Below are positions 3,497 through 58,430 of a stretch of DNA of 64,000 bases, in pieces. A program made the position numbers and the translations under genes. The DNA is taken from assembly GCA_050288105.1 (NCBI GenBank), contig JBNKDE010000008.1, positions 22,683 through 86,682 of the forward strand. The letters run 5' to 3'. Below the pieces are notes generated by a model. The model saw only the letters and a program-made list of their open reading frames with translations. It was not told the origin of the DNA and did no database searches. The DNA comes from Gammaproteobacteria bacterium (GTDB lineage: Bacteria > Pseudomonadota > Gammaproteobacteria > GCA-001735895). The stretch's first letter is position 1. Each line of letters begins with the position of its first letter.

Positions 3497-4294
3497 ATGA
3501 TTCATTTTGATTTTGAATTTGTACTGGTCGCTGCAGTTGCTCTGAGTGGCTTTATATGGCTTGTTGATAAGCTTTTCCTGGCTTCAAAAAGGCAGCTCAA
3601 ATCCAGTGGCACCTCATCACCTGATCCAGTACTGGTTGAATATTCCAAGTCCTTTTTCCCTGTCCTGCTTGCGGTGTTGATCCTGCGTTCTTTTATTTAT
3701 GAACCGTTTCGCATTCCATCAGGATCTATGATGCCAACGCTGCTGGTGGGTGATTTCATCCTGGTGAATAAATATACTTACGGTCTACGTCTGCCGGTGC
3801 TACATACGCAGGTGACCGAAGGCGTTAAACCGGCACGAGGTGATGTCGCTGTATTTCGCTTTCCTAACGATGAGTCGGTCGATTTTATTAAGCGGGTTAT
3901 TGGCTTACCAGGGGATCACGTGAGCTATTATGGTCGCCGCCTGATTATCAACGGCAAGGCTCTGGAGGTAGATTTTAAGGAAGATTATCCGGGGCAGGGT
4001 ACTGGCAAGGATAATATGAAAGGTGCCAAAGTTTATGTTGAACAGCAGGGAAATCATTCCTATACCATGATGACGGATCCCGCTGTTGAATTTAGTACTG
4101 AAGGAGAGCTGGTAGTACCGGAAGGTCATTACTTTGTCATGGGTGATAACCGCGATCACAGTAACGATAGCCGTTACTGGGGATTTGTGCCGGAAAATAA
4201 TCTGGTTGGTAAAGCGGTTCGCATCTGGATGCACTGGGATTGGCGAGATGGCGGTAGTGGTCTAGACTTATCAAGGATTGGGCAGAAAATATAA
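3497..4294 (+). CDS. lepB: signal peptidase I
   Basis: SGSMMPTL catalytic Ser box, GDNRDHSNDSRYWGFV box, N-terminal TM. Position after lepA. Confidence 0.95.
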   Translation: MIHFDFEFVLVAAVALSGFIWLVDKLFLASKRQLKSSGTSSPDPVLVEYSKSFFPVLLAVLILRSFIYEPFRIPSGSMMPTLLVGDFILVNKYTYGLRLPVLHTQVTEGVKPARGDVAVFRFPNDESVDFIKRVIGLPGDHVSYYGRRLIINGKALEVDFKEDYPGQGTGKDNMKGAKVYVEQQGNHSYTMMTDPAVEFSTEGELVVPEGHYFVMGDNRDHSNDSRYWGFVPENNLVGKAVRIWMHWDWRDGGSGLDLSRIGQKI

Positions 4295-20868: not shown

Positions 20869-20945
20869 TGGCGTCCCCGAGAGGGTTCGAACCTCTAACC
20901 TGCTCCTTAGGAGGGAGCCGCGCTATCCTATTGTGCCACGGGGAC
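20869..20945 (-). tRNA. tRNA-Arg (anticodon CCT)
   Basis: Manual cloverleaf fold on the reverse complement: acceptor GTCCCCG/CGGGGAC, anticodon stem GCTCC/GGAGC with loop CTCCTAA, T-arm GGTTCGAAC, 3' GCCA. A CAGGGC/GCCCTG hairpin plus T-run terminator follows on the minus strand (20841-20866). Confidence 0.85.
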
Positions 20946-29499: not shown

Positions 29500-29586
29500 T
29501 GGTACCGGGGGGGGGACTCGAACCCCCAAGATGTTACCACCAGCGGATTTTGAATCCGCCGCGTCTACCAGTTCCGCCACCCCGGC
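29500..29586 (-). tRNA. tRNA-Leu (anticodon CAA), class II with long variable arm
   Basis: Manual fold on the reverse complement: acceptor GCCGGGG/CCCCGGT (G1-U72), anticodon stem GCGGA/TCCGC with loop TTCAAAA, long variable arm, T-arm GGGGGTTCGAGTCCCCC, ACCA 3' end. Confidence 0.85.
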
Positions 29587-35829: not shown

Positions 35830-36756
35830 ATGGCTCTTATACGTGAATATAATTTTATGGGCATTCGCAAGATAGCCCTGACGACTTCTATCATCGTCAT
35901 GCTGATCTCTATAGCCAGCCTGGTCGTTAACAAGCTCAACGTCGGTATCGATTTTACTGGTGGTAGTGTGATTGAAATCGGCTATCAGCATGCAGTAGAA
36001 CTGGAACCTATTCGTCAGGGTCTGGCTGATGCAGGATACGCCGATGCCATTGTGCAGCACTTTGGCAGCGCGAAAGAAGTGTTAATCCGTCTGGTACCCC
36101 GTGAAGGACAGAATAAGGCGGAACTCAGTACCCAGGTGATTAGCTTACTGGAGAAGCTGGATAGCGATACCATCGATGTACGCCGGGTGGATTTTGTTGG
36201 TCCTCAGGTAGGTAAGGAACTGACCGAAGACGGTGGTTTAGCCGTTTTGTATGCGTTGATCGCGATTCTTATCTATGTGTCGTTGCGATTCGAATACCGC
36301 TTCTCGCTGGGTGCGGTCGCGGCGCTGATCCACGACGTGGTGATTACGCTGGGTGTGTTCTCCATTCTGCAGCTGGATTTCGACCTGACTGTACTGGCCG
36401 CAATCCTGGCTGTGATTGGATATTCACTCAACGATACCATTGTTGTGTTTGATCGTATCCGAGAAAACTTCCGCAAGATTCGCAAAAAGTCAGCTCTTGA
36501 GATTACCAATACCTCAATCAATCAGACGATTTCCCGAACCTTGATGACCTCTATTACGACCTTGCTGGTGTTAATCTGTCTGTATGTGTTTGGTGGAGAA
36601 GTGATCGCCTCTTTTGCCCTGGCTCTGATTGTTGGTGTCGTGGTCGGTACCTATTCATCCATTTATGTTGCGAGTTCAACTGCACTGGCTTTAGGCATTT
36701 CCAGGGAGGATTTGTTGATACCGGAAAAGAATGAGGAAGAACTGGATCGCCCTTAG
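35830..36756 (+). CDS. secF: protein translocase subunit SecF
   Basis: 308 aa, GIDFTGG motif, follows secD. Confidence 0.95.
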   Translation: MALIREYNFMGIRKIALTTSIIVMLISIASLVVNKLNVGIDFTGGSVIEIGYQHAVELEPIRQGLADAGYADAIVQHFGSAKEVLIRLVPREGQNKAELSTQVISLLEKLDSDTIDVRRVDFVGPQVGKELTEDGGLAVLYALIAILIYVSLRFEYRFSLGAVAALIHDVVITLGVFSILQLDFDLTVLAAILAVIGYSLNDTIVVFDRIRENFRKIRKKSALEITNTSINQTISRTLMTSITTLLVLICLYVFGGEVIASFALALIVGVVVGTYSSIYVASSTALALGISREDLLIPEKNEEELDRP

Positions 36757-50086: not shown

Positions 50087-51469
50087 ATGACAATATTGAT
50101 AATCGACTCTGATTTATCTCGTGCACAATCGTTGCAGCATCTTTTCCACTTTATTAAATACCAGACTGAAATCCTCGACCCAGCAGGGCTAGATAATATT
50201 GATGCTGCTGGGCTATCAGATTATCTAGGTATTTTTAGCATTCAACACGAGCACGTTGTTCGAATTTTGCGTGAGCAAAACGCTCAGCACCAGATTCAGC
50301 TACCGGTCGTGCTGCTGGCAGAAAAGCAGGATCTGGATAACCAGAAGGTGGTGGTTCATCCCCCCTTTATCGCAGCATTATGCTTTAGCCCTGATTATCA
50401 TTCGCTCACCCAGGTGCTAGATCAGGTTAAATCGCATAATACCCAGGAACGACGCAAGGATAATCGACAGTGTCAGGCATTTATCGGCTGCAGCCCTTCA
50501 GTGAGTTCCATTAACCAGATGATCGCCCAGGTTGCCGATACCAACGCATCAGTGCTGATTCTTGGCGAATCGGGTACAGGTAAGGAAGTCATCGCCAGGA
50601 ATATTCATGCGCAGTCAAACCGGTCTAATAAGCCTTTTATCCCCATTAACTGTGGTGCGATTCCCGCTGATTTACTGGAAAGTGAGTTATTTGGACATGA
50701 GAAAGGTGCCTTTACCGGAGCCATCACTGCACGCCAGGGACGCTTCGAACTGGCTGAAGGAGGGGTACTGTTTCTTGATGAAATTGGCGACATGCCTTTA
50801 TCCATGCAGGTTAAATTATTACGGGTGTTGCAGGAGCGTAGTTTTGAACGTGTCGGTGGTAACCACACCATTCAAACTGATGTCAGGGTGATTGCCGCAA
50901 CACATAGAAACCTGGAGGAATTGATCGTTGAAGGTAAGTTCCGCGAAGACCTCTATTACCGCCTGAATGTTTTTCCGATTGAAGTGACTCCGTTACGTGA
51001 ACGTCGTGAAGATATCCCACTGCTGGTCACGGAGCTGGTTGATCGTATCGAACAGGATAACAGAGGGTCGGTCCGATTAACTAAAAATGCGACTGCCATG
51101 CTATCGCTATACGACTGGCCCGGTAATGTGCGAGAACTCGCCAATCTGATTGAGCGCCTGGCCATTTTATATCCGCGTGACGTGGTCGATATCAAGCAGT
51201 TGCCTGCCAAATTTGTTACTGAAAATGCCACTATCCCCAGTATAGAAGAGCCTGTCGAGGGACAGGTCGAATCTGCGACTGCGATCAACTTTAATGTTTT
51301 GCCAGACGGGGGGATTGATATGAAACAGTATCTAATGGATATAGAGGTTTCGCTGATCGAACAGGCGCTGGGTGCCACCGACAATGTGGTAGCGCGCGCG
51401 GCCAACTTGCTGCGTATGCGTCGAACAACCCTGGTAGAAAAAATGCGTAAGTACGAGATTGAACGTTAA
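50087..51469 (+). CDS. fleQ: sigma-54-dependent master flagellar regulator (FleQ/FlrA-type: FleQ N-domain, AAA+ sigma-54 interaction domain, Fis-type HTH)
   Basis: Walker A GESGTGKEV, the GAFTGA loop (EKGAFTGA), a C-terminal HTH, and a degenerate N-terminal receiver. Confidence 0.85.
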   Translation: MTILIIDSDLSRAQSLQHLFHFIKYQTEILDPAGLDNIDAAGLSDYLGIFSIQHEHVVRILREQNAQHQIQLPVVLLAEKQDLDNQKVVVHPPFIAALCFSPDYHSLTQVLDQVKSHNTQERRKDNRQCQAFIGCSPSVSSINQMIAQVADTNASVLILGESGTGKEVIARNIHAQSNRSNKPFIPINCGAIPADLLESELFGHEKGAFTGAITARQGRFELAEGGVLFLDEIGDMPLSMQVKLLRVLQERSFERVGGNHTIQTDVRVIAATHRNLEELIVEGKFREDLYYRLNVFPIEVTPLRERREDIPLLVTELVDRIEQDNRGSVRLTKNATAMLSLYDWPGNVRELANLIERLAILYPRDVVDIKQLPAKFVTENATIPSIEEPVEGQVESATAINFNVLPDGGIDMKQYLMDIEVSLIEQALGATDNVVARAANLLRMRRTTLVEKMRKYEIER

Positions 51470-51600: not shown

Positions 51601-52764
51601 ATGAACTCAAATCAGCAACGCGTAGAATTACAACAGGCCTTTCATCAGTTTAATCAGGTGTCTAATGCACTGACTGAAAGCTTTATTCAATTAAACAAAA
51701 CGGTAGGCGGACTAGCTCGCGACGATGCTGAACGTCTTCCTTTTACCGATCAGGATAATATGACCCAGCAATTGCGATCCCTCATCGATGCCATCCCGGG
51801 CGCTGTTATTGTCATTAACTCGCAGGGTAAGGTAGATGATTTCAATCTTGCAGCAAGCGAGTTGCTGGGTGAGCCGTTACGCCAACATGACTGGCGTGAT
51901 ATCGTGCACCGGGCTTTTCTGACCGAGCTGGATCAGGGGGAACTGAGGACACCTGATGGGCGCCAGTTCAGCATTTCTACCCGGCCTCTGGGCTACAAAC
52001 CAGGACAGATATTGCTATTAAGTGACGTTACCCAGACTCGGATGCTGCAGCGCGCAGCGCAACAGAACCTGCACCTGATGACGATGGGTAAGATGATGGC
52101 CAGTCTGGCTCACCAGATTCGTACCCCACTGTCATCCAGTATGTTATACCTCTCGCAGATTATCGATGGCAATCTGGATCTGGAAAAAAGCCAGAAATTC
52201 ACCAGCAAGGCTTTAGACAGGATTCGTCATATCGAAAAAACCATTAACGATATGCTGGTTTTTGCCCATGGTGGGCAATTCCATATGAGCGATTTCGCTA
52301 TTACCGAATTATTAGCAGAACTGCAGGACCACCTGGCGCCACAACTGAAACTTCACAGTGCCCAACTGTATATCGAAACCTCTAATCAGAATATCCTGAT
52401 TAACGGCAATAAAGATGCCTTGCTGGGTGCCCTGGCAAACCTGTGCATGAATGCTATAGATGCCAGTGAACAGGCGTTAAAGATCGCTATAAGCGCCCAG
52501 CTAGATCGCAGAGGTGACCTGAATCTGACCGTTGCTGATAACGCAGGCGGTATGGATGAACAGACATTGCAACACCTGTTTGATCCTTTTTATACCACAA
52601 AACAGGATGGCACTGGGCTAGGGCTGGCAGTCGTTAAATCAGTGATAGAGTCGCATCAGGGGCAAATTAAGGTAAGCTCCAGGCTGGGTGAGGGCAGTCA
52701 ATTTGATATCAGCTTGCCCTGTATGACAGGCAGTAAGACTCAATTGAGCAAACAGAAAAAATGA
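51601..52764 (+). CDS. fleS: flagellar two-component sensor histidine kinase (FleS/FlrB-type: PAS, HisKA, HATPase)
   Basis: H-box MASLAHQIRTPLSS, G-boxes (GTGLGLAVVK), a cytoplasmic PAS domain, position between fleQ and fleR. Confidence 0.8.
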   Translation: MNSNQQRVELQQAFHQFNQVSNALTESFIQLNKTVGGLARDDAERLPFTDQDNMTQQLRSLIDAIPGAVIVINSQGKVDDFNLAASELLGEPLRQHDWRDIVHRAFLTELDQGELRTPDGRQFSISTRPLGYKPGQILLLSDVTQTRMLQRAAQQNLHLMTMGKMMASLAHQIRTPLSSSMLYLSQIIDGNLDLEKSQKFTSKALDRIRHIEKTINDMLVFAHGGQFHMSDFAITELLAELQDHLAPQLKLHSAQLYIETSNQNILINGNKDALLGALANLCMNAIDASEQALKIAISAQLDRRGDLNLTVADNAGGMDEQTLQHLFDPFYTTKQDGTGLGLAVVKSVIESHQGQIKVSSRLGEGSQFDISLPCMTGSKTQLSKQKK

Positions 52765-52773
52765 GGCATGTAG

Positions 52774-54102
52774 ATGATTGATGTATTAGTAGTAGAAGAT
52801 GATGCTGATCTGCGTGAAGCAATTTGCGATATGCTCGAAATTAATGATATTAGCTATATTGAAGCCGAAAACGGTCATCAGGCTCAGCAACAGCTGGCAG
52901 AAAACAACGTCGCTCTGGTATTAAGCGATGTGCAGATGAGCCCAGGAAATGGTTATCAGCTGCTTGAATACATTACGCAGAATCATGCCGGCCTACCAGT
53001 CATCCTGATGACCGCCTATGGTTCTATTCCCCAGGCGGTTGATGCGATTCAGGCAGGTGCTGTGGATTACCTGGTCAAGCCCTTTGAGGTTTCAGAGCTG
53101 GTAAAAACGCTGCAACAACAGTTGTTGCCCAGTGCGCGCCAGGCTGGCGAAGGGATGATTGCTGTCGATCCAGCGTCAAAGAAACTGGTAGAGCTGGCTA
53201 AAAAGGTGGCACAGTCCGAAGCGACTGTTTTACTTAATGGCGAAAGTGGGGTCGGCAAAGAAGTATTGTCTAAATTAATTCACCAGAACTCTCCGCGTAG
53301 TCATGGTCCTTTTGTCGCTATTAACTGTGCCGCAATACCTGAAAACATGCTCGAAGCTGCATTATTCGGCTATGAAAAAGGCGCATTTACAGGCGCGATA
53401 AAAAGCTCTATGGGCAAGTTTGAACAGGCCCAGGGTGGTACTTTACTGCTGGACGAAATTAGTGAAATGGATCTTGCTTTACAGGCGAAATTACTGCGCG
53501 TCATACAGGAACGTCAGGTGGAACGCCTGGGCAGCCAGAAGTTAATTGATCTCGACGTCCGATTGATCGCAACAACTAATCGAGACCTGAAAAAGCAGGT
53601 GGCAAACAAGCTGTTCCGGGAAGACCTGTTCTACCGCCTGAATGTTTTCCCTCTGCAGGTACCCGCCTTGCGATATAGAATCCAGGATATCATTCCGATA
53701 GCCGAGAAGTTAATCAATCGATATAGCCGTGCAGCAGGTCAGCCCACAACGCTATCAAGTGCAGCCGGACAGTTACTGATCCAGCATTCATGGCCCGGCA
53801 ATGTGCGCGAACTGGACAACGTGATACAACGCGCAATGATTTTAAAGCAGGGTAGCGAAATCACCGCAGATGACATCATGCTGGAGACAGATAATTTAAC
53901 GCTGAATGAATCCAACGAAGCAGAAGACAGTGGAAAATTACACAGCGATTTACGAGATCGTGAAGCGGAAGTCATTCTGGAAACCTTAAAGTGCCACAAT
54001 GGAAGTCGAAAGAAAACTGCCGAGCAACTGGGTATCAGTCCAAGAACATTGCGCTATAAACTGGCACGTATGCGTGATGCGGGTGCTGCAGTGCCGGATT
54101 AA
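52774..54102 (+). CDS. fleR: sigma-54-dependent response regulator (FleR/FlrC-type: receiver, AAA+, HTH)
   Basis: Receiver with phosphoacceptor (LVLSDVQM), Walker A GESGVGKEV, the GAFTGA loop (EKGAFTGA), and a Fis-like HTH. Confidence 0.85.
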   Translation: MIDVLVVEDDADLREAICDMLEINDISYIEAENGHQAQQQLAENNVALVLSDVQMSPGNGYQLLEYITQNHAGLPVILMTAYGSIPQAVDAIQAGAVDYLVKPFEVSELVKTLQQQLLPSARQAGEGMIAVDPASKKLVELAKKVAQSEATVLLNGESGVGKEVLSKLIHQNSPRSHGPFVAINCAAIPENMLEAALFGYEKGAFTGAIKSSMGKFEQAQGGTLLLDEISEMDLALQAKLLRVIQERQVERLGSQKLIDLDVRLIATTNRDLKKQVANKLFREDLFYRLNVFPLQVPALRYRIQDIIPIAEKLINRYSRAAGQPTTLSSAAGQLLIQHSWPGNVRELDNVIQRAMILKQGSEITADDIMLETDNLTLNESNEAEDSGKLHSDLRDREAEVILETLKCHNGSRKKTAEQLGISPRTLRYKLARMRDAGAAVPD

Positions 54103-54107
54103 GGATG

Positions 54108-54400
54108 TTTAACCACGGAGGACACAGAGAACACAGAGGAGGATGAGGGGAATCATATTCTGAAATCACATCTTAGGATGAGTTCTTTCTGGTTTATTCG
54201 GACCAAAAAAATTTAACCACGAAGCACACGAAGGACACGAAGATACAATAAAAATTTCTCTGTGCTCTCCGTGTCCTCTGTGGTTTAAACAAAAACCTTA
54301 CAGCCCGCACAACCAAACCGCAGCGCTAGCAAGCCACCATAGGAAACATCAAGAATAACCCAAAAAACTTCGTGACCTTCGTGTGCTTCGTGGTTCAACC
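54108..54400. repeat. two interleaved pairs of ~30-nt inverted repeats (A1 54111-54139 / A1' 54257-54285; B1 54215-54242 / B1' 54368-54398) built from an NACAC-GNAG unit and capped by TTTAACC
   Basis: A1 is AACCACGGAGGACACAGAGAACACAGAGG. The reverse complement of A1' is AAACCACAGAGGACACGGAGAGCACAGAGA. B1 is AACCACGAAGCACACGAAGGACACGAAG, and the reverse complement of B1' differs from it by 1-2 nt. The arrangement along the sequence is A B A' B'. Confidence 0.6.
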
Positions 54401-54426
54401 TAAAATCAGTAAATTTAGAACAGTCC

Positions 54427-55605
54427 TCAGACCTTGACCAGGGTAGTTTCATAACCCTGTTCGGGATTCCGCGGTACCATCTGAGACAATAGTAGCGAGG
54501 CCACAGCGAAGCCAGTCCCGCACAGAAACACCAGTGCAGGAGAAACAATCCATAAAAACCCCAGCACAAATGGCAGGATGACGGCGGCTATGTGGTTGAT
54601 AGAAAAGGCAACCCCGGCGGTTGATGCAAAATCTCTGGGATCCCCGATTTTCTTAAAATAGCTCTTCAATGCTATCGCCATCGCAAAAAATACATGATCC
54701 AGCACATACAGCACTGATGCTAGCATGGCATTTTCAACAAAAGCATAGCTGGTGAAGATGATAATCAACCCCAGATATTCCAGTGTTAGCGTTTTTCTCT
54801 CTCCCCAGAATGTCACCATCTTGCCTACTTTAGGGGCTATGTATATGGTTAAAACACCATTCACCAGAAACAGAAGTGCAATATCTGAAGCTGAAAGATT
54901 AAACTTCTCCACCATTAAAAACCCGGCGAACACGACAAATATCTGGCGTCTGGCGCCGGATAAAAATGTGAGTACGTAATACAACCAGTAACATTTTCGC
55001 AGTACCATCTTTTTGTGTTGTTCGGCCTCGCCCTTAAAGTGAGGAAAGCCCCTATAGATGATGATGGCGAGAATCACTGTGGTCATGCCACCCAGCAGGT
55101 ACACCCACTGGTAATCGATGTGCAGAAAATCCAGCATCAGGTAAATCAAACCGAAAACAAATAACCCGGTAAATGATCCGACGGCCATCTGTCGACCCAT
55201 CACGACAGGCAGTTGATCCTTACTGATCAATTGCAATGACAGTGATTGCTGCATGGTTTCGGCATAGTGGAAACCCACAGACATCAGCACAGTGGTGAAG
55301 TAAAGGCCCATCACGCTGGGCAGGTAACCGGTTAACGCGGTACCCAATCCAAGTAATACCAGCGATACAAAGGCCAGCGTTTGCTCGCGCATAAGCAGTA
55401 GCAGGAACACTGCAGTAAAAGCCAGAAATCCAGGGACTTCGCGCAAGCTTTGCAGGATCCCCATTTCGATTCCACTAAATGATGCCTGCTCGATGGCAAA
55501 GTTATTCAACAGTGTGCGCCAGGTGGAAAAGGCCAGGGGTACTGCAGCAGCCATCAGGTAAAGCAGAAATTCGGGGCGCTTCTGCCAGTCAGCCCATTTA
55601 TTCAT
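54427..55605 (-). CDS. MFS-family transporter, translationally coupled to ppc
   Basis: About 12 TM helices. The start ATG overlaps the ppc TGA stop as ATGA. The longer ORF in the six-frame track would overlap ppc by 72 nt. Confidence 0.75.
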   Translation of the reverse strand: MNKWADWQKRPEFLLYLMAAAVPLAFSTWRTLLNNFAIEQASFSGIEMGILQSLREVPGFLAFTAVFLLLLMREQTLAFVSLVLLGLGTALTGYLPSVMGLYFTTVLMSVGFHYAETMQQSLSLQLISKDQLPVVMGRQMAVGSFTGLFVFGLIYLMLDFLHIDYQWVYLLGGMTTVILAIIIYRGFPHFKGEAEQHKKMVLRKCYWLYYVLTFLSGARRQIFVVFAGFLMVEKFNLSASDIALLFLVNGVLTIYIAPKVGKMVTFWGERKTLTLEYLGLIIIFTSYAFVENAMLASVLYVLDHVFFAMAIALKSYFKKIGDPRDFASTAGVAFSINHIAAVILPFVLGFLWIVSPALVFLCGTGFAVASLLLSQMVPRNPEQGYETTLVKV

Positions 55606-58430
55606 CCGGTGTTTCTCATGCCAGCAGCGATCGCATTTATAGAACTGAGCAGGGCATCCTTCCAGTCTTCGCAATGGTCAGGATCTTTTGCGTCAGCCCT
55701 GAATTTGCGTAACAGGTTGATCTGGATATAGCACAGCGGGTCGAGATAGGGTTCGCGCCGGGTGAGCGACAATTCCAGTGTGGGTTCACTCGACAGCAGT
55801 CGTTCCGTTTGGGGAATAATCAGCGCATAACGCATGATTTTTTCATGTTCGGTAAAGATCATGCTGTATATCTTGTCTGATAGCTGTTTATTCTGGCACA
55901 GGTCCGCGTAATAACGCGCTGTTTGCATATCTGATTTAAACAATGCCATCTGCGTATTGGATATCATTGCATTAAAAAATGGCCAGTCCTTATACATTTT
56001 CTGTAATTTTTTCAGCCCTTGCTCAGGATGCAATTGCAACCAGGCATCGATGGCTGCGCCCATGCCATACCAGGCGGGCAGGGTATGGCGCGATTGTGCC
56101 CAGCCAAATACCCAGGGTATCGCGCGTACCGAAGATTTAGACATATCCCCCTTGCGTCGGTGACTGGGTCTCGAGCCGATATTCATCAGGCCGATTTCAC
56201 TGACTGGTGTAGCCTGGTAAAAGTATTCAAAGAATCCTTCTGTGTTATCGGTCAGCTCCCGATAGCTTTGCTCAGCGAGCTGAGCCAGTTGCTGCATATC
56301 GGCATAATACAGCTCATGGTTATAGGCATGTTCGCGGATAATATTGAGGCTGGATTTCATCAAACCTGTAATACCCATAGACAGTTCATACAATGCGGTT
56401 TCTTCATTACTGTATTTACTGGAAAGCACCTCACCCTGCTCAGTAAATTTGATCTGTCCATGAACGGTGTCATGCGGTTGCGACAGTATCGCGTCGTGGG
56501 TAGGGCCACCCCCGCGTCCAATGGTGCCGCCACGTCCATGAAACATGCGACATTTGACTTCATGTTTACGCGTAATTGAGATCACCTTTTTCTGCGCCTG
56601 GTAGAGCCCCCAGGCAGCTGAAACGATACCACCATCTTTACAGGAGTCTGAGTAGCCTAGCATCACTTCCTGGATATTATTAGCTGCTGCGAGCAGTGTC
56701 TTATAGAGATCATTACTTAACAGCTGATTGAGCACATCGTCGATATGGGACAGGTCGTCGATGGTCTCAAACAGGGGGCTGATCTCAATGTGACAGAAAT
56801 AAACGCCGTTAACCTTACCAACCAGACCCGCCAGATAGGCCAGATACATTACCTCCATGATGTGGCTGGCATGGTGTGTCATGGATATGACGTAATTGCC
56901 GAAGGCTTCGTTACTGATCTCTTCGCGCATCTGGCGCATGGTTTTAAATAACTGTAGTGTTTCCAGCGTATCGGCGCTGAGCGATGATTCGATGGTATCG
57001 GGTTTCAGGCCACTGCTAATCTGGTTCGCCAGATATTGCAGACGTTCGCTTTCGGGTAAAGCCTGGTAATCGATAATCCCGGCCTGCTGGAGTATTTCAT
57101 GCACTGCCATGGTATGTCGGGTTGACTCCTGGCGCACGTCCAGCTTGAGCATGAAGAAACCAAAGGTTTCAACCAGTCGGATCAGGTCTTTTAACTTACC
57201 GTTGGCCGATGTGGCGTCGTTGTGGCTCACCAGTGAGTTGTAAATCAGGTACAGGTCATCGAGGAATTCCTGACTGCTCTGGTAACAATGTATGCTGGGT
57301 TCGGTGACTTTACCTTTGAGCCTGGCCTTCACGGTACGCTGGTTTGAAGTCAGGCGATAATGCATGTAATACAGCTTGCGACGGTAGATCTCCTCTTCAA
57401 ATCGGTCGCGGGTTTCATCAAACGCCTTGATACCCTTGGATTCATCCGCAATCAAGCTCTCCATAAAAGCATCATTCGCGTTACACCAACGTGAGGAGTG
57501 AGTCAGGGTTTGAGTGAGTTCCAGCACTCTGGCACTGTATTCACGCAGGATCTCTTCGGCATGCATACGTAAGGCATTGCTGGTAGTTTCTGCAGTGACA
57601 TAAGGATTGCCATCGCGGTCACCGCCAATCCATGATCCGAATTTGATAAAGCTGGGTGGGGTGACAACCGGATTACCCTGATCATCCACGCCGTATACTC
57701 GAGAAACCGCGTTTTCGATATGGCGGTATTCCATGGCGACAGCCTGGTAGATACCGCGCTGAAAATAAGACAGACCGAGTTTGATTTCGTCGGCGACCTC
57801 AGGTCGTTTCTCGCGTACTTCGTTGGTTTGCCAGAGTACTTCAATCTGTTCCTGCAGGTGATCGATCAACGCATTTTTTTCATATCCGGTGATACGCACA
57901 TCGGTCAGATCATCGATAATCTCGAAAATCTCTCGCTGCAACTGCATCACCGTTCGGCGTTTGGATTCGGTTGGGTGTGCGGTAAAAACAGGCCGATAGG
58001 AGAGCGCATTGAATAGCAGTGCCAGATCCTGCTGGTCGATACCCTGCTGTTTAAACTCTGAGATGGTCTTAAAAAAGGAACCCTTCCAGTCAGGGTACCC
58101 AAGCACTCGCACCGACCGCCGACGTTGACGATGGTGGAAGTCTTCTTCAGCGATATTAACCAGGCTGAAATAGATCGAAAAGGCCCGGATTACCTGCTCT
58201 ATGATTTTAGGCGGTAGCTGCTCTATCAAATTGATCAACTGCAAACGCCTGGCAGCATCGTCCTGTTTGCGTAACTGAATGAAGCCCTTACGCAATTTTT
58301 CAACCGCTTTATACACCTGCGGGTCTTCATGTTTTTTTAGAACATTACCCAGCAGTTTTCCCAGTAACTTGACTCGAGATCTTAATTCCTTGTCTGAACT
58401 TGAATAGTTGGTTTCGGCTATTTCATTCAT
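55602..58430 (-). CDS. ppc: phosphoenolpyruvate carboxylase
   Basis: 942 aa, conserved catalytic blocks (VFTAHPTE, GYSDSCKDGG), and a C-terminal ...NTG. Confidence 0.95.
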   Translation of the reverse strand: MNEIAETNYSSSDKELRSRVKLLGKLLGNVLKKHEDPQVYKAVEKLRKGFIQLRKQDDAARRLQLINLIEQLPPKIIEQVIRAFSIYFSLVNIAEEDFHHRQRRRSVRVLGYPDWKGSFFKTISEFKQQGIDQQDLALLFNALSYRPVFTAHPTESKRRTVMQLQREIFEIIDDLTDVRITGYEKNALIDHLQEQIEVLWQTNEVREKRPEVADEIKLGLSYFQRGIYQAVAMEYRHIENAVSRVYGVDDQGNPVVTPPSFIKFGSWIGGDRDGNPYVTAETTSNALRMHAEEILREYSARVLELTQTLTHSSRWCNANDAFMESLIADESKGIKAFDETRDRFEEEIYRRKLYYMHYRLTSNQRTVKARLKGKVTEPSIHCYQSSQEFLDDLYLIYNSLVSHNDATSANGKLKDLIRLVETFGFFMLKLDVRQESTRHTMAVHEILQQAGIIDYQALPESERLQYLANQISSGLKPDTIESSLSADTLETLQLFKTMRQMREEISNEAFGNYVISMTHHASHIMEVMYLAYLAGLVGKVNGVYFCHIEISPLFETIDDLSHIDDVLNQLLSNDLYKTLLAAANNIQEVMLGYSDSCKDGGIVSAAWGLYQAQKKVISITRKHEVKCRMFHGRGGTIGRGGGPTHDAILSQPHDTVHGQIKFTEQGEVLSSKYSNEETALYELSMGITGLMKSSLNIIREHAYNHELYYADMQQLAQLAEQSYRELTDNTEGFFEYFYQATPVSEIGLMNIGSRPSHRRKGDMSKSSVRAIPWVFGWAQSRHTLPAWYGMGAAIDAWLQLHPEQGLKKLQKMYKDWPFFNAMISNTQMALFKSDMQTARYYADLCQNKQLSDKIYSMIFTEHEKIMRYALIIPQTERLLSSEPTLELSLTRREPYLDPLCYIQINLLRKFRADAKDPDHCEDWKDALLSSINAIAAGMRNTG

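Follow-up and report, generated by a model that had tools for sequence, protein, structure and literature searches.

Probable colonisation of a fleR-MFS gene junction by hairpin-forming repeats of REPIN/MITE type, whose arms recur across bacterial phyla and phages

Extragenic palindromic repeats are normally lineage-specific. REPINs are doublets of REP sequences that form hairpins and are mobilised by RAYT transposases (Bertels & Rainey 2011, PMC3116915). Several REPIN flavours can coexist within a genome and decayed singlets occur, while REP clusters arise by insertion beside or into existing copies, and tandem arrays are also found (PMC3116915). The repeats described here occupy the intergenic region between fleR and a convergent MFS permease gene. 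They are probably hairpin repeat DNA of the REPIN/MITE type that invaded the junction and recombined there, with a presumed effect on the 3′ ends of the adjacent transcripts. Locally, this is common repeat DNA of a selfish or recombinogenic nature. The family to which its arms belong is unexpectedly universal: the 7-mer core, the number of units and the foot of the arms are the same in Proteobacteria, Bacteroidota, Planctomycetota, Acidobacteriota, Chloroflexota, Verrucomicrobiota, Cyanobacteria, Gemmatimonadota and phages.

The window (the whole 64-kb stretch of DNA that was analyzed) has the gene context given in the initial annotation, i.e. a FleQ-like gene and fleR facing the convergent MFS and ppc genes:

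50087-51469, plus strand, FleQ-like gene
51601-52764, plus strand, histidine kinase gene
52774-54102, plus strand, fleR, sigma-54 response regulator gene
54427-55605, minus strand, MFS permease gene (392 aa, as called on related contigs)
55602-58430, minus strand, ppc

For the MFS gene, the 392-aa reading frame (54427-55605) is more likely than a 415-aa ORF with a TTG start at position 55674; exact-protein look-ups with the 415-aa ORF and with P0001 gave no match. The start of the MFS gene (approx. position 55605) overlaps the end of ppc by 4 nt. This points to an operon of ppc and MFS, with the B′:B stem described below as its putative terminator. The sole Rfam/ARAGORN matches in the window were tRNA-Arg(CCT) (20869-20945, minus strand) and tRNA-Leu(CAA) (29500-29586, minus strand).

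Four arms of approx. 31 nt, arranged in the order A B A′ B′, were identified within the 324-bp fleR-MFS intergenic region:

54108-54138, plus strand, arm A: TTTAAC followed by CACGGAGGA CACAGAGAA CACAGAG; begins 5 nt past the fleR stop codon
54139-54211, no strand assigned, A-B spacer: 73 nt, with internal direct repeat D2, ending in an A7 run (54205-54211)
54212-54242, plus strand, arm B: TTTAAC followed by CACGAAGCA CACGAAGGA CACGAAG; serves as the left-hand terminal inverted repeat of B...B′ (187 bp)
54243-54367, no strand assigned, interior of B...B′: 15-nt loop, arm A′ and 79-nt spacer; opposite orientation in related strains
54258-54288, minus strand, arm A′: on the minus strand TTAAAC followed by CACAGAGGA CACGGAGAG CACAGAG; internal arm, 15 nt from B
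54368-54398, minus strand, arm B′: on the minus strand TTGAAC followed by CACGAAGCA CACGAAGGT CACGAAG; right terminal inverted repeat
54399-54441, minus strand, flank from B′ to the MFS gene with the last MFS codons and stop codon; non-homologous to relatives with an empty site

Each arm is built from TTnAAC (n being T, A or G in the window) followed by three head-to-tail 9-mers CAC-RRAG-NN. The interleaved inverted pairs noted earlier were borne out by the sequence and by a repeat finder, which reported A/A′ (pair I2; 31 nt, 87% complementary, 119 nt apart) and B/B′ (pair I1; 31 nt, 94% complementary, 125 nt apart). The inverted partners and irregular spacing also uphold the view that this is not a CRISPR array, for which regularly spaced direct repeats with unique spacers would be expected. 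The reciprocal G/A substitutions pointed out between A and A′ are real (RR series GGAG-AGAG-AGAG and AGAG-GGAG-AGAG, respectively), and the two arms differ further in one spacer (AA vs AG) and in 1 nt of the flank. The interleaving has a simpler explanation: positions 54212-54398 form a single palindromic element, B...B′, of 187 bp with 31-bp terminal inverted repeats and A′ inside, alongside which A was added. One palindromic element plus an extra arm explains the order without a pseudoknot or paired regulator sites.

When the window was searched with the pattern TTTAACCACGRAGNACACRRAGNACACRRAG, allowing up to 3 mismatches, just the four arm sites matched, and none of 100 dinucleotide-preserving shuffles of the window contained any match to this pattern. 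The two-unit core gave 8 matches in the 64-kb window, every one in the intergenic region, compared with 0.03 expected.

Related contigs were fetched using the FleR and MFS proteins. The junction is empty in five relatives: L245 and L492 (MFS identity of 81% and 87%, respectively), and L494, L495 and L496, which fall in the same 90% FleR cluster. At these empty sites the stop codons of fleR and MFS overlap at TTAA, within GATTAA. The MFS protein ends in ...ETTLVKV* in the window and in ...ETTLIPRVAD* at the empty sites; thus, the inserted DNA supplies the last MFS codons and the stop codon. The filled junctions have the following layouts:

window (= L242): A, 73 nt, B, 15 nt, A′, 79 nt, B′; 324 nt
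L241 and L243: B, inverted 79-nt spacer, A′ on the plus strand, 16-nt loop, B′; 211 nt, A absent
L497: A cut to two units and, following it, B and the spacer, oriented as in L241
L244: A, B, A′ (two units), 79 nt, B′, followed by a second copy (decayed arm, A′′, 79 nt, B′′); 509 nt

In L241 and L243, B abuts fleR, the TAA of which lies inside the TTAAC of the arm. The A-B spacer is 44 nt long in L244 and L497, compared with 73 nt in the window. Relatives with a filled junction contain 3 or about 7 arms. On the simplest reading of these layouts, B...B′ may duplicate in tandem and flip by recombination between its ends, and A would be an extra, partly decayed unit.

A 94-aa ORF of the window (54285-54569, minus strand) and a 44-aa gene called on the public contig L241 (4304-4438) run across the arms; both look like artefacts of stop-poor repeat sequence. 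Contig L243 ends 63 nt and contig L497 138 nt past fleR, i.e. the assemblies break inside the repeat cluster, and in the genome scan described below, several matches are likewise no more than about 100 nt away from the end of their locus. Arm repeats probably fragment metagenome assemblies. Two metagenome scans with the 79-nt spacer gave 0 matches, but they also missed a JGI contig known to carry the second pattern (L497) and are therefore uninformative.

Under the preferred explanation, the junction would originally have had no intergenic DNA and would have been colonised by copies of a small, hairpin-forming extragenic repeat. Two convergent arms would pair in single-stranded DNA or RNA to give a stem; B...B′ would be one such element, with A′ as a third arm inside, and A with its 73-nt tail would be an added partial unit. 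The elements would behave in a REPIN/MITE-like, non-autonomous manner, being present or absent among close relatives and shifting in copy number, and their inverted and direct arms would drive inversion, duplication and deletion. A local effect may be expected at the 3′ ends of the convergent transcripts, through termination on the minus strand and protection by the stems. Several points weigh against this explanation, each within the scope searched: target-site duplications were not seen, no transposase lies between distant convergent arms and no gene recurs beside the bacterial copies, the window has a single locus in 64 kb and B. finegoldii a single hairpin in 50 kb, about 80% of the viral arms listed are single and lie in either orientation relative to genes, which a pure hairpin function leaves unexplained, fleR termination is unaccounted for, and convergent intergenic regions are not clearly enriched in arms.

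The occurrence of the arms elsewhere was examined by scanning one genome per species with the pattern CACRRAGNNCACRRAGNNCACRRAG (at least 120 loci) and by scanning a viral collection (at least 120 loci). Two shuffled-unit control patterns also gave at least 120 loci, derived from coding 9-nt repeats (apparently collagen-like). As the controls reach this number too, raw counts prove nothing, and features outside the query were compared instead. Among the matches listed, the flank 5′ of the first CAC, which lies outside the search pattern, is conserved as TT(A/C)AC (0.5, 0.5, 0.3, 0.8 and 1.3 bits), with TTCAC in 40% of arms; the controls are without this flank. Exactly three units make up 92-98% of the listed arrays, the unit number of the controls being variable. 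An inverted partner lies within 250 nt of 57% of bacterial and 18% of viral arms listed, compared with 2-9% in the controls; across analyses, about 57-70% of the listed bacterial arms have an inverted partner on their 3′ side. Partners are found on this side only (49 convergent vs 4 divergent pairs among the matches listed), and the loops of the listed hairpins are either 4-40 nt or about 75-210 nt long. About 80% of the viral arms listed are single, in either orientation relative to genes.

Among the matches listed, the arm TTnAC-(CACRRAGNN)x3, usually as an inverted doublet, extends over more than 12 phyla of bacteria and also to viral contigs. The matches listed from the genome scan include Gamma-, Beta-, Alpha- and Deltaproteobacteria, Planctomycetota, Acidobacteriota, Chloroflexota, Bacteroidota, Verrucomicrobiota, Lentisphaerota, Kiritimatiellota, Gemmatimonadota, Cloacimonadota, Thermotogota and others. 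Copies in the plasmid collection belong to Gemmatirosa, Bacteroides, Nostoc/Anabaena and Pseudoalteromonas, while 0 arms were found in 5,426 genomes of E. coli. The proposal of a species-specific REP/BIME-like family therefore holds as to kind, the arms being REP-like, but not as to species specificity.

The density of copies is one locus per 64 kb in the window, one hairpin per 50 kb in Bacteroides finegoldii, 17-18 BLAST places per Gemmatirosa replicon of approx. 1 Mb, and 4 elements in 8 kb of L005. The arms of the L086 cluster (3751-3964) are arranged + + - - like those of the window, and approx. 2 kb from this cluster there is a match to a group II intron domain (L086:5914-6062). Three whole arms stand in tandem with a 34-nt period at a contig end (L009:12-104), and long runs of 7-9 units occur at L019:5621-5699, L099:7193-7271 and L094:4749-4809; these tandem arms and runs may be 9-mer expansions or unrelated coding repeats. 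In the Pseudoalteromonas shioyasakiensis megaplasmid CP076682.1 (L486:2400-2760), a hairpin lies within a higher-order tandem repeat of approx. 240 bp, with flanks including GTTCAAATATCTTTTTGCA...CTAACCACAGAGG repeated directly past the hairpin element.

No Rfam family for the arms was found in a gathering-threshold scan of the window, in a permissive scan of positions 54000-54500 or in 18 related loci; these scans yielded just tRNAs, one group II intron and chance miRNA-like hairpin matches. Literature string searches (16-mers; CACAGAG with keywords) found no description of the arm, the lone match being a Bacteroides fragilis PCR primer that contains an arm by chance. As judged from Rfam and limited text searches, the arm family is apparently undescribed, and it is filed here under extragenic palindromic repeats.

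The structure of the hairpin was analyzed using 54 doublets taken from a range of organisms. Pairs at the second R position are G-C (30-32 cases), A-U (17-20) or G-U (0-1); G-U is tolerated at the first R position. The variable base of TTnAC also covaries (C-G 25, A-U 7, U-A 3). The observed pairing and covariation were reached by 0 of 500 shuffles, and the signal collapses when the partner is slid by 1-3 columns. The NN spacers match from arm to arm no better than chance. Covariation at the R positions and the foot, together with chance-level spacers, gives a consensus stem in which a foot of 5 bp leads into three helices of 7 bp each, with 2x2 internal loops between them. The arms are purine-rich, with almost no T and without internal complementarity. 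One RR flavour (AG 52%, GA 21%, GG 21%, AA 6%) is kept across all three units in 69% of arms, compared with 16% expected. In L005, spacers, loops and outer flanks are common to the copies within the genome, the pattern expected of copy-and-paste families. Mismatches on the sense strand (the strand of the upstream gene) comprise 23 G-U and 34 A-C; there being no G-U preference, these counts give no reason to name RNA, as opposed to DNA, as the form under selection.

The conservation of the 7-mer across phyla, set against the free spacers, would suggest that the hairpin is recognised by a conserved protein. The strongest alternative, which we regard as possible though clearly less probable than the preferred explanation, is that the arms are iterons to which a conserved protein binds, in the form of DNA or of a hairpin; this protein might be a recombinase, an HUH/Y1-type transposase or a nucleoid protein. 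The iteron alternative overlaps with the explanation by invading hairpin repeats, the primary constraint being the protein and not the hairpin. The conserved CAC-RRAG 7-mer with spacers that vary and pair at chance level, the exact number of three units per arm, the homogeneous RR flavour and the symmetry of the mismatches between strands are all consistent with it, as is the persistence of single arms in phages. The covariation at the R positions and the foot, however, is what base pairing predicts, and none of the 240 loci listed contains an arm-linked gene for a candidate protein. To our knowledge, the 9-bp spacing and the arm motif fit no described binding site, which also counts against iterons.

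Comparisons of empty and filled sites were also possible in phages. In L165 (1020-1070), a single arm with short flanks (49 nt) lies exactly at the stop codon of a terminase-like gene (terL). This insert is missing from L229, L236, L122, L231, L128 and L147, in which the flanks are contiguous (GTCAA followed by TAGCAGCC), suggesting that single arms, and not doublets alone, may be gained. In L202 (9389-9496) and L156, a whole doublet of approx. 120-140 nt is placed between the TAA and ATG of GCTAATATGAC, which is intact in L150. These two independent empty/filled phage pairs both have the insert exactly at a gene junction. The doublet of L202/L156 parts an upstream Shine-Dalgarno-like GGAGG from the next ATG; the folded hairpin, if formed, could rejoin them. 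In B. finegoldii, a hairpin lies 6 nt past the nadC stop codon, and another (NZ_OY725925.1, L498:36611-36703) has its first arm inside an annotated GH28 gene, which ends at 36647 and takes its last 12 or so codons from the arm, a parallel to the MFS C-terminus of the window. Target-site duplications were not seen at the three empty/filled comparisons (fleR/MFS, L165 and L202). The insertion junctions are TCAA|TAG, CTAA|TAT and TTAA|TCT; they give a hint of targeting beside stop codons, three cases being too few for a conclusion.

Gene-position statistics were restricted to loci with a GC content of up to 52%, where simple ORF maps are reliable. In these loci, the distribution of arms over tandem, convergent and divergent intergenic regions broadly follows how numerous such regions are, without clear enrichment of convergent ones (20% of arm-bearing regions vs 16% of all gene pairs). 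Within tandem regions, the median distance of the arms is 95 nt from the stop codon upstream, which is less than the 140 nt to the start codon that follows (p=0.005). A strict coupling to same-strand stop codons (peak at 1-17 nt) was rejected as partly an artefact of spurious ORFs in high-GC DNA; it is weakened because the low-GC maps show both orientations, and in phages the same contig bears arms both sense and antisense to real genes.

Bacterial arms outside the window adjoin unrelated housekeeping genes. All-against-all clustering of 4157 neighboring ORFs identified no recurrent gene beside the bacterial copies among the matches listed; the recurrent clusters comprised ordinary phage genes of related viral contigs and large families, e.g. 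two-component systems. No transposase lies between distant convergent arms in the 240 loci listed, the ORFs there being housekeeping or phage genes. A more far-reaching proposal, which we put forward as a speculation, is that the arms are uncatalogued pan-bacterial and phage micro-elements, the imperfect hairpin of which would be recognised by a conserved trans-acting enzyme and which would insert preferentially at or beside stop codons, as singles of approx. 49 nt and as doublets; we consider this somewhat less probable than the iteron alternative.

The orientation of the interior of B...B′ varies between strains: the window (L242) and L244 share one orientation, while L241, L243 and L497 have the other. 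The reverse complement of 54243-54367 matches L241 with 95.2% identity over 126 nt, and its forward strand gives no match. A programmed inverton flanked by B and B′, the orientation of which would control termination or expression at the fleR/MFS-ppc boundary, was considered in this connection and is improbable. It could account for the finding of both orientations among close relatives, irrespective of arm A (which L497 has and L241/L243 lack), and in two samples from a single study, for the two contigs (L243 and L497) that end inside the repeats, and for the U7 that follows the stem in one arrangement only. The orientations, however, lie on diverged haplotypes with synonymous differences, so that the comparison is between strains; the region has 0 promoter-like sites, most loops of the family among the matches listed are 4-40 nt and too short for inversion, and ordinary recombination suffices to invert DNA between 31-bp inverted repeats.

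RNA folding on both strands, a check proposed in the initial annotation, gave structures far more stable than shuffles (z of -6.3 and -5.0 for the two strands) with the B:B′ helix formed on both; on the minus strand the B′:B helix was present in the minimum-free-energy and centroid folds. Such stability follows trivially from the inverted repeats. The following unit resembles a terminator:

54205-54398, minus strand, long B′:B stem followed by U7 (complement of the A7 at 54205-54211)

The 3′ foot of this stem, GUGGUUAAA, runs straight into U7. The terminator pattern scanner considers loops of 3-8 nt only and was hence unable to report the unit. As read from the sequence, the B′:B stem with U7 probably terminates MFS-ppc transcripts, and the stems of the window may protect the 3′ ends of the fleR and MFS-ppc mRNAs. 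A U-tract past the stem is lacking on the plus strand, and the termination of fleR is thus unaccounted for.

It had also been suggested that the region encodes a structured RNA with mutually exclusive helices. The stable folding of both strands and the covariation at the paired R positions across the family are in line with a non-coding riboregulator switching between A:A′ and B:B′, yet this is very improbable. The folding stability is trivial, there is no Rfam match and no sigma-70 promoter-like site in the intergenic region, the entire region is missing from close relatives, loops and spacers are unconserved across the family, and the transcribed strand has no bias of G-U over A-C. That the arms are upstream activator sites for the sigma-54 enhancer-binding proteins FleQ/FleR, another early suggestion favored by proximity to fleQ/fleS/fleR only, is hardly credible, given that they lie downstream of convergent genes, are missing from the five orthologous junctions with the same flagellar regulators, vary in relatives, and occur beside unrelated genes in many phyla and in phages.

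For the window, these results remove a tempting but wrong regulatory reading of the arms. Invading repeat DNA is also the origin of the final MFS codons with their stop codon, and probably of the terminator of this gene. The conservation of the arms across phyla implies either that a recognition factor is shared very widely or that horizontal spread is frequent. If the micro-element proposal were true, the family would be a phylum-spanning analogue of the REPIN-RAYT system with another recognition logic. Arm repeats also break metagenome assemblies and yield spurious small ORF calls.

Among known systems, REP/REPINs are the closest kind and MITEs the next closest, membership failing in both cases on defining features. 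Intrinsic terminators and pairs of uptake sequences resemble the arms in that a stem-loop follows shortly after stop codons; the minus-strand B′:B stem is followed by U7, and the A-rich 5′ flank of the arms is a T-rich tail on the opposite strand. Terminators, however, lack sequence conservation across phyla, and many arm copies are without a U-tract, while uptake sequences are lineage-specific. Integron attC sites have R′′ (RYYYAAC) and R′ (GTTRRRY) core sites and stand in same-direction arrays next to intI; arms A and B fit RYYYAAC, but TTCAC is found in 40% of arms, and convergent doublets lie beside housekeeping genes, for which reason attC was rejected. DnaA boxes, parS, sigma-54 and T7-like promoters, CsrA sites, attC and the 16S anti-Shine-Dalgarno sequence, as commonly described, each fitted the sequence logo in part and were likewise set aside.

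Heterocystous cyanobacteria have STRR (short tandemly repeated repetitive) heptamers and small dispersed repeats (SDR), which are very short tandem units in intergenic DNA. STRR and SDR share with the arms the very small, apparently mobile insert (the 49-nt single arm), and Nostoc/Anabaena plasmids bear arms; as generally described, STRR and SDR differ in being restricted to cyanobacteria and in having other sequences. SDR are mentioned in PMC3116915.

With MITEs (Correia/NEMIS and ERIC-type), the element has in common terminal inverted repeats (B/B′, 31 bp, 94%), a size of 70-250 bp, presence/absence polymorphism and an intergenic location, sometimes with the supply of the last codons of a gene. 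It differs from them in that target-site duplications are lacking, the boundaries outside the arms are not sharp, no insertion sequence with the same ends was found among the 240 loci listed, and single arms insert alone. REP sequences are imperfect palindromes specific to a species or genus, whereas the arms are tandem 9-mers without self-complementarity, with a 7-mer common to phyla and phages; clustering of the 4157 ORFs of the listed loci revealed neither a RAYT gene nor another gene beside the arm copies, and the arms are absent from E. coli, a REP-bearing species. Like REPs and REPINs, however, the arms are short and extragenic, occur mostly as inverted, hairpin-forming doublets but also as singlets, and are found in several flavours, in clusters and in tandem arrays.
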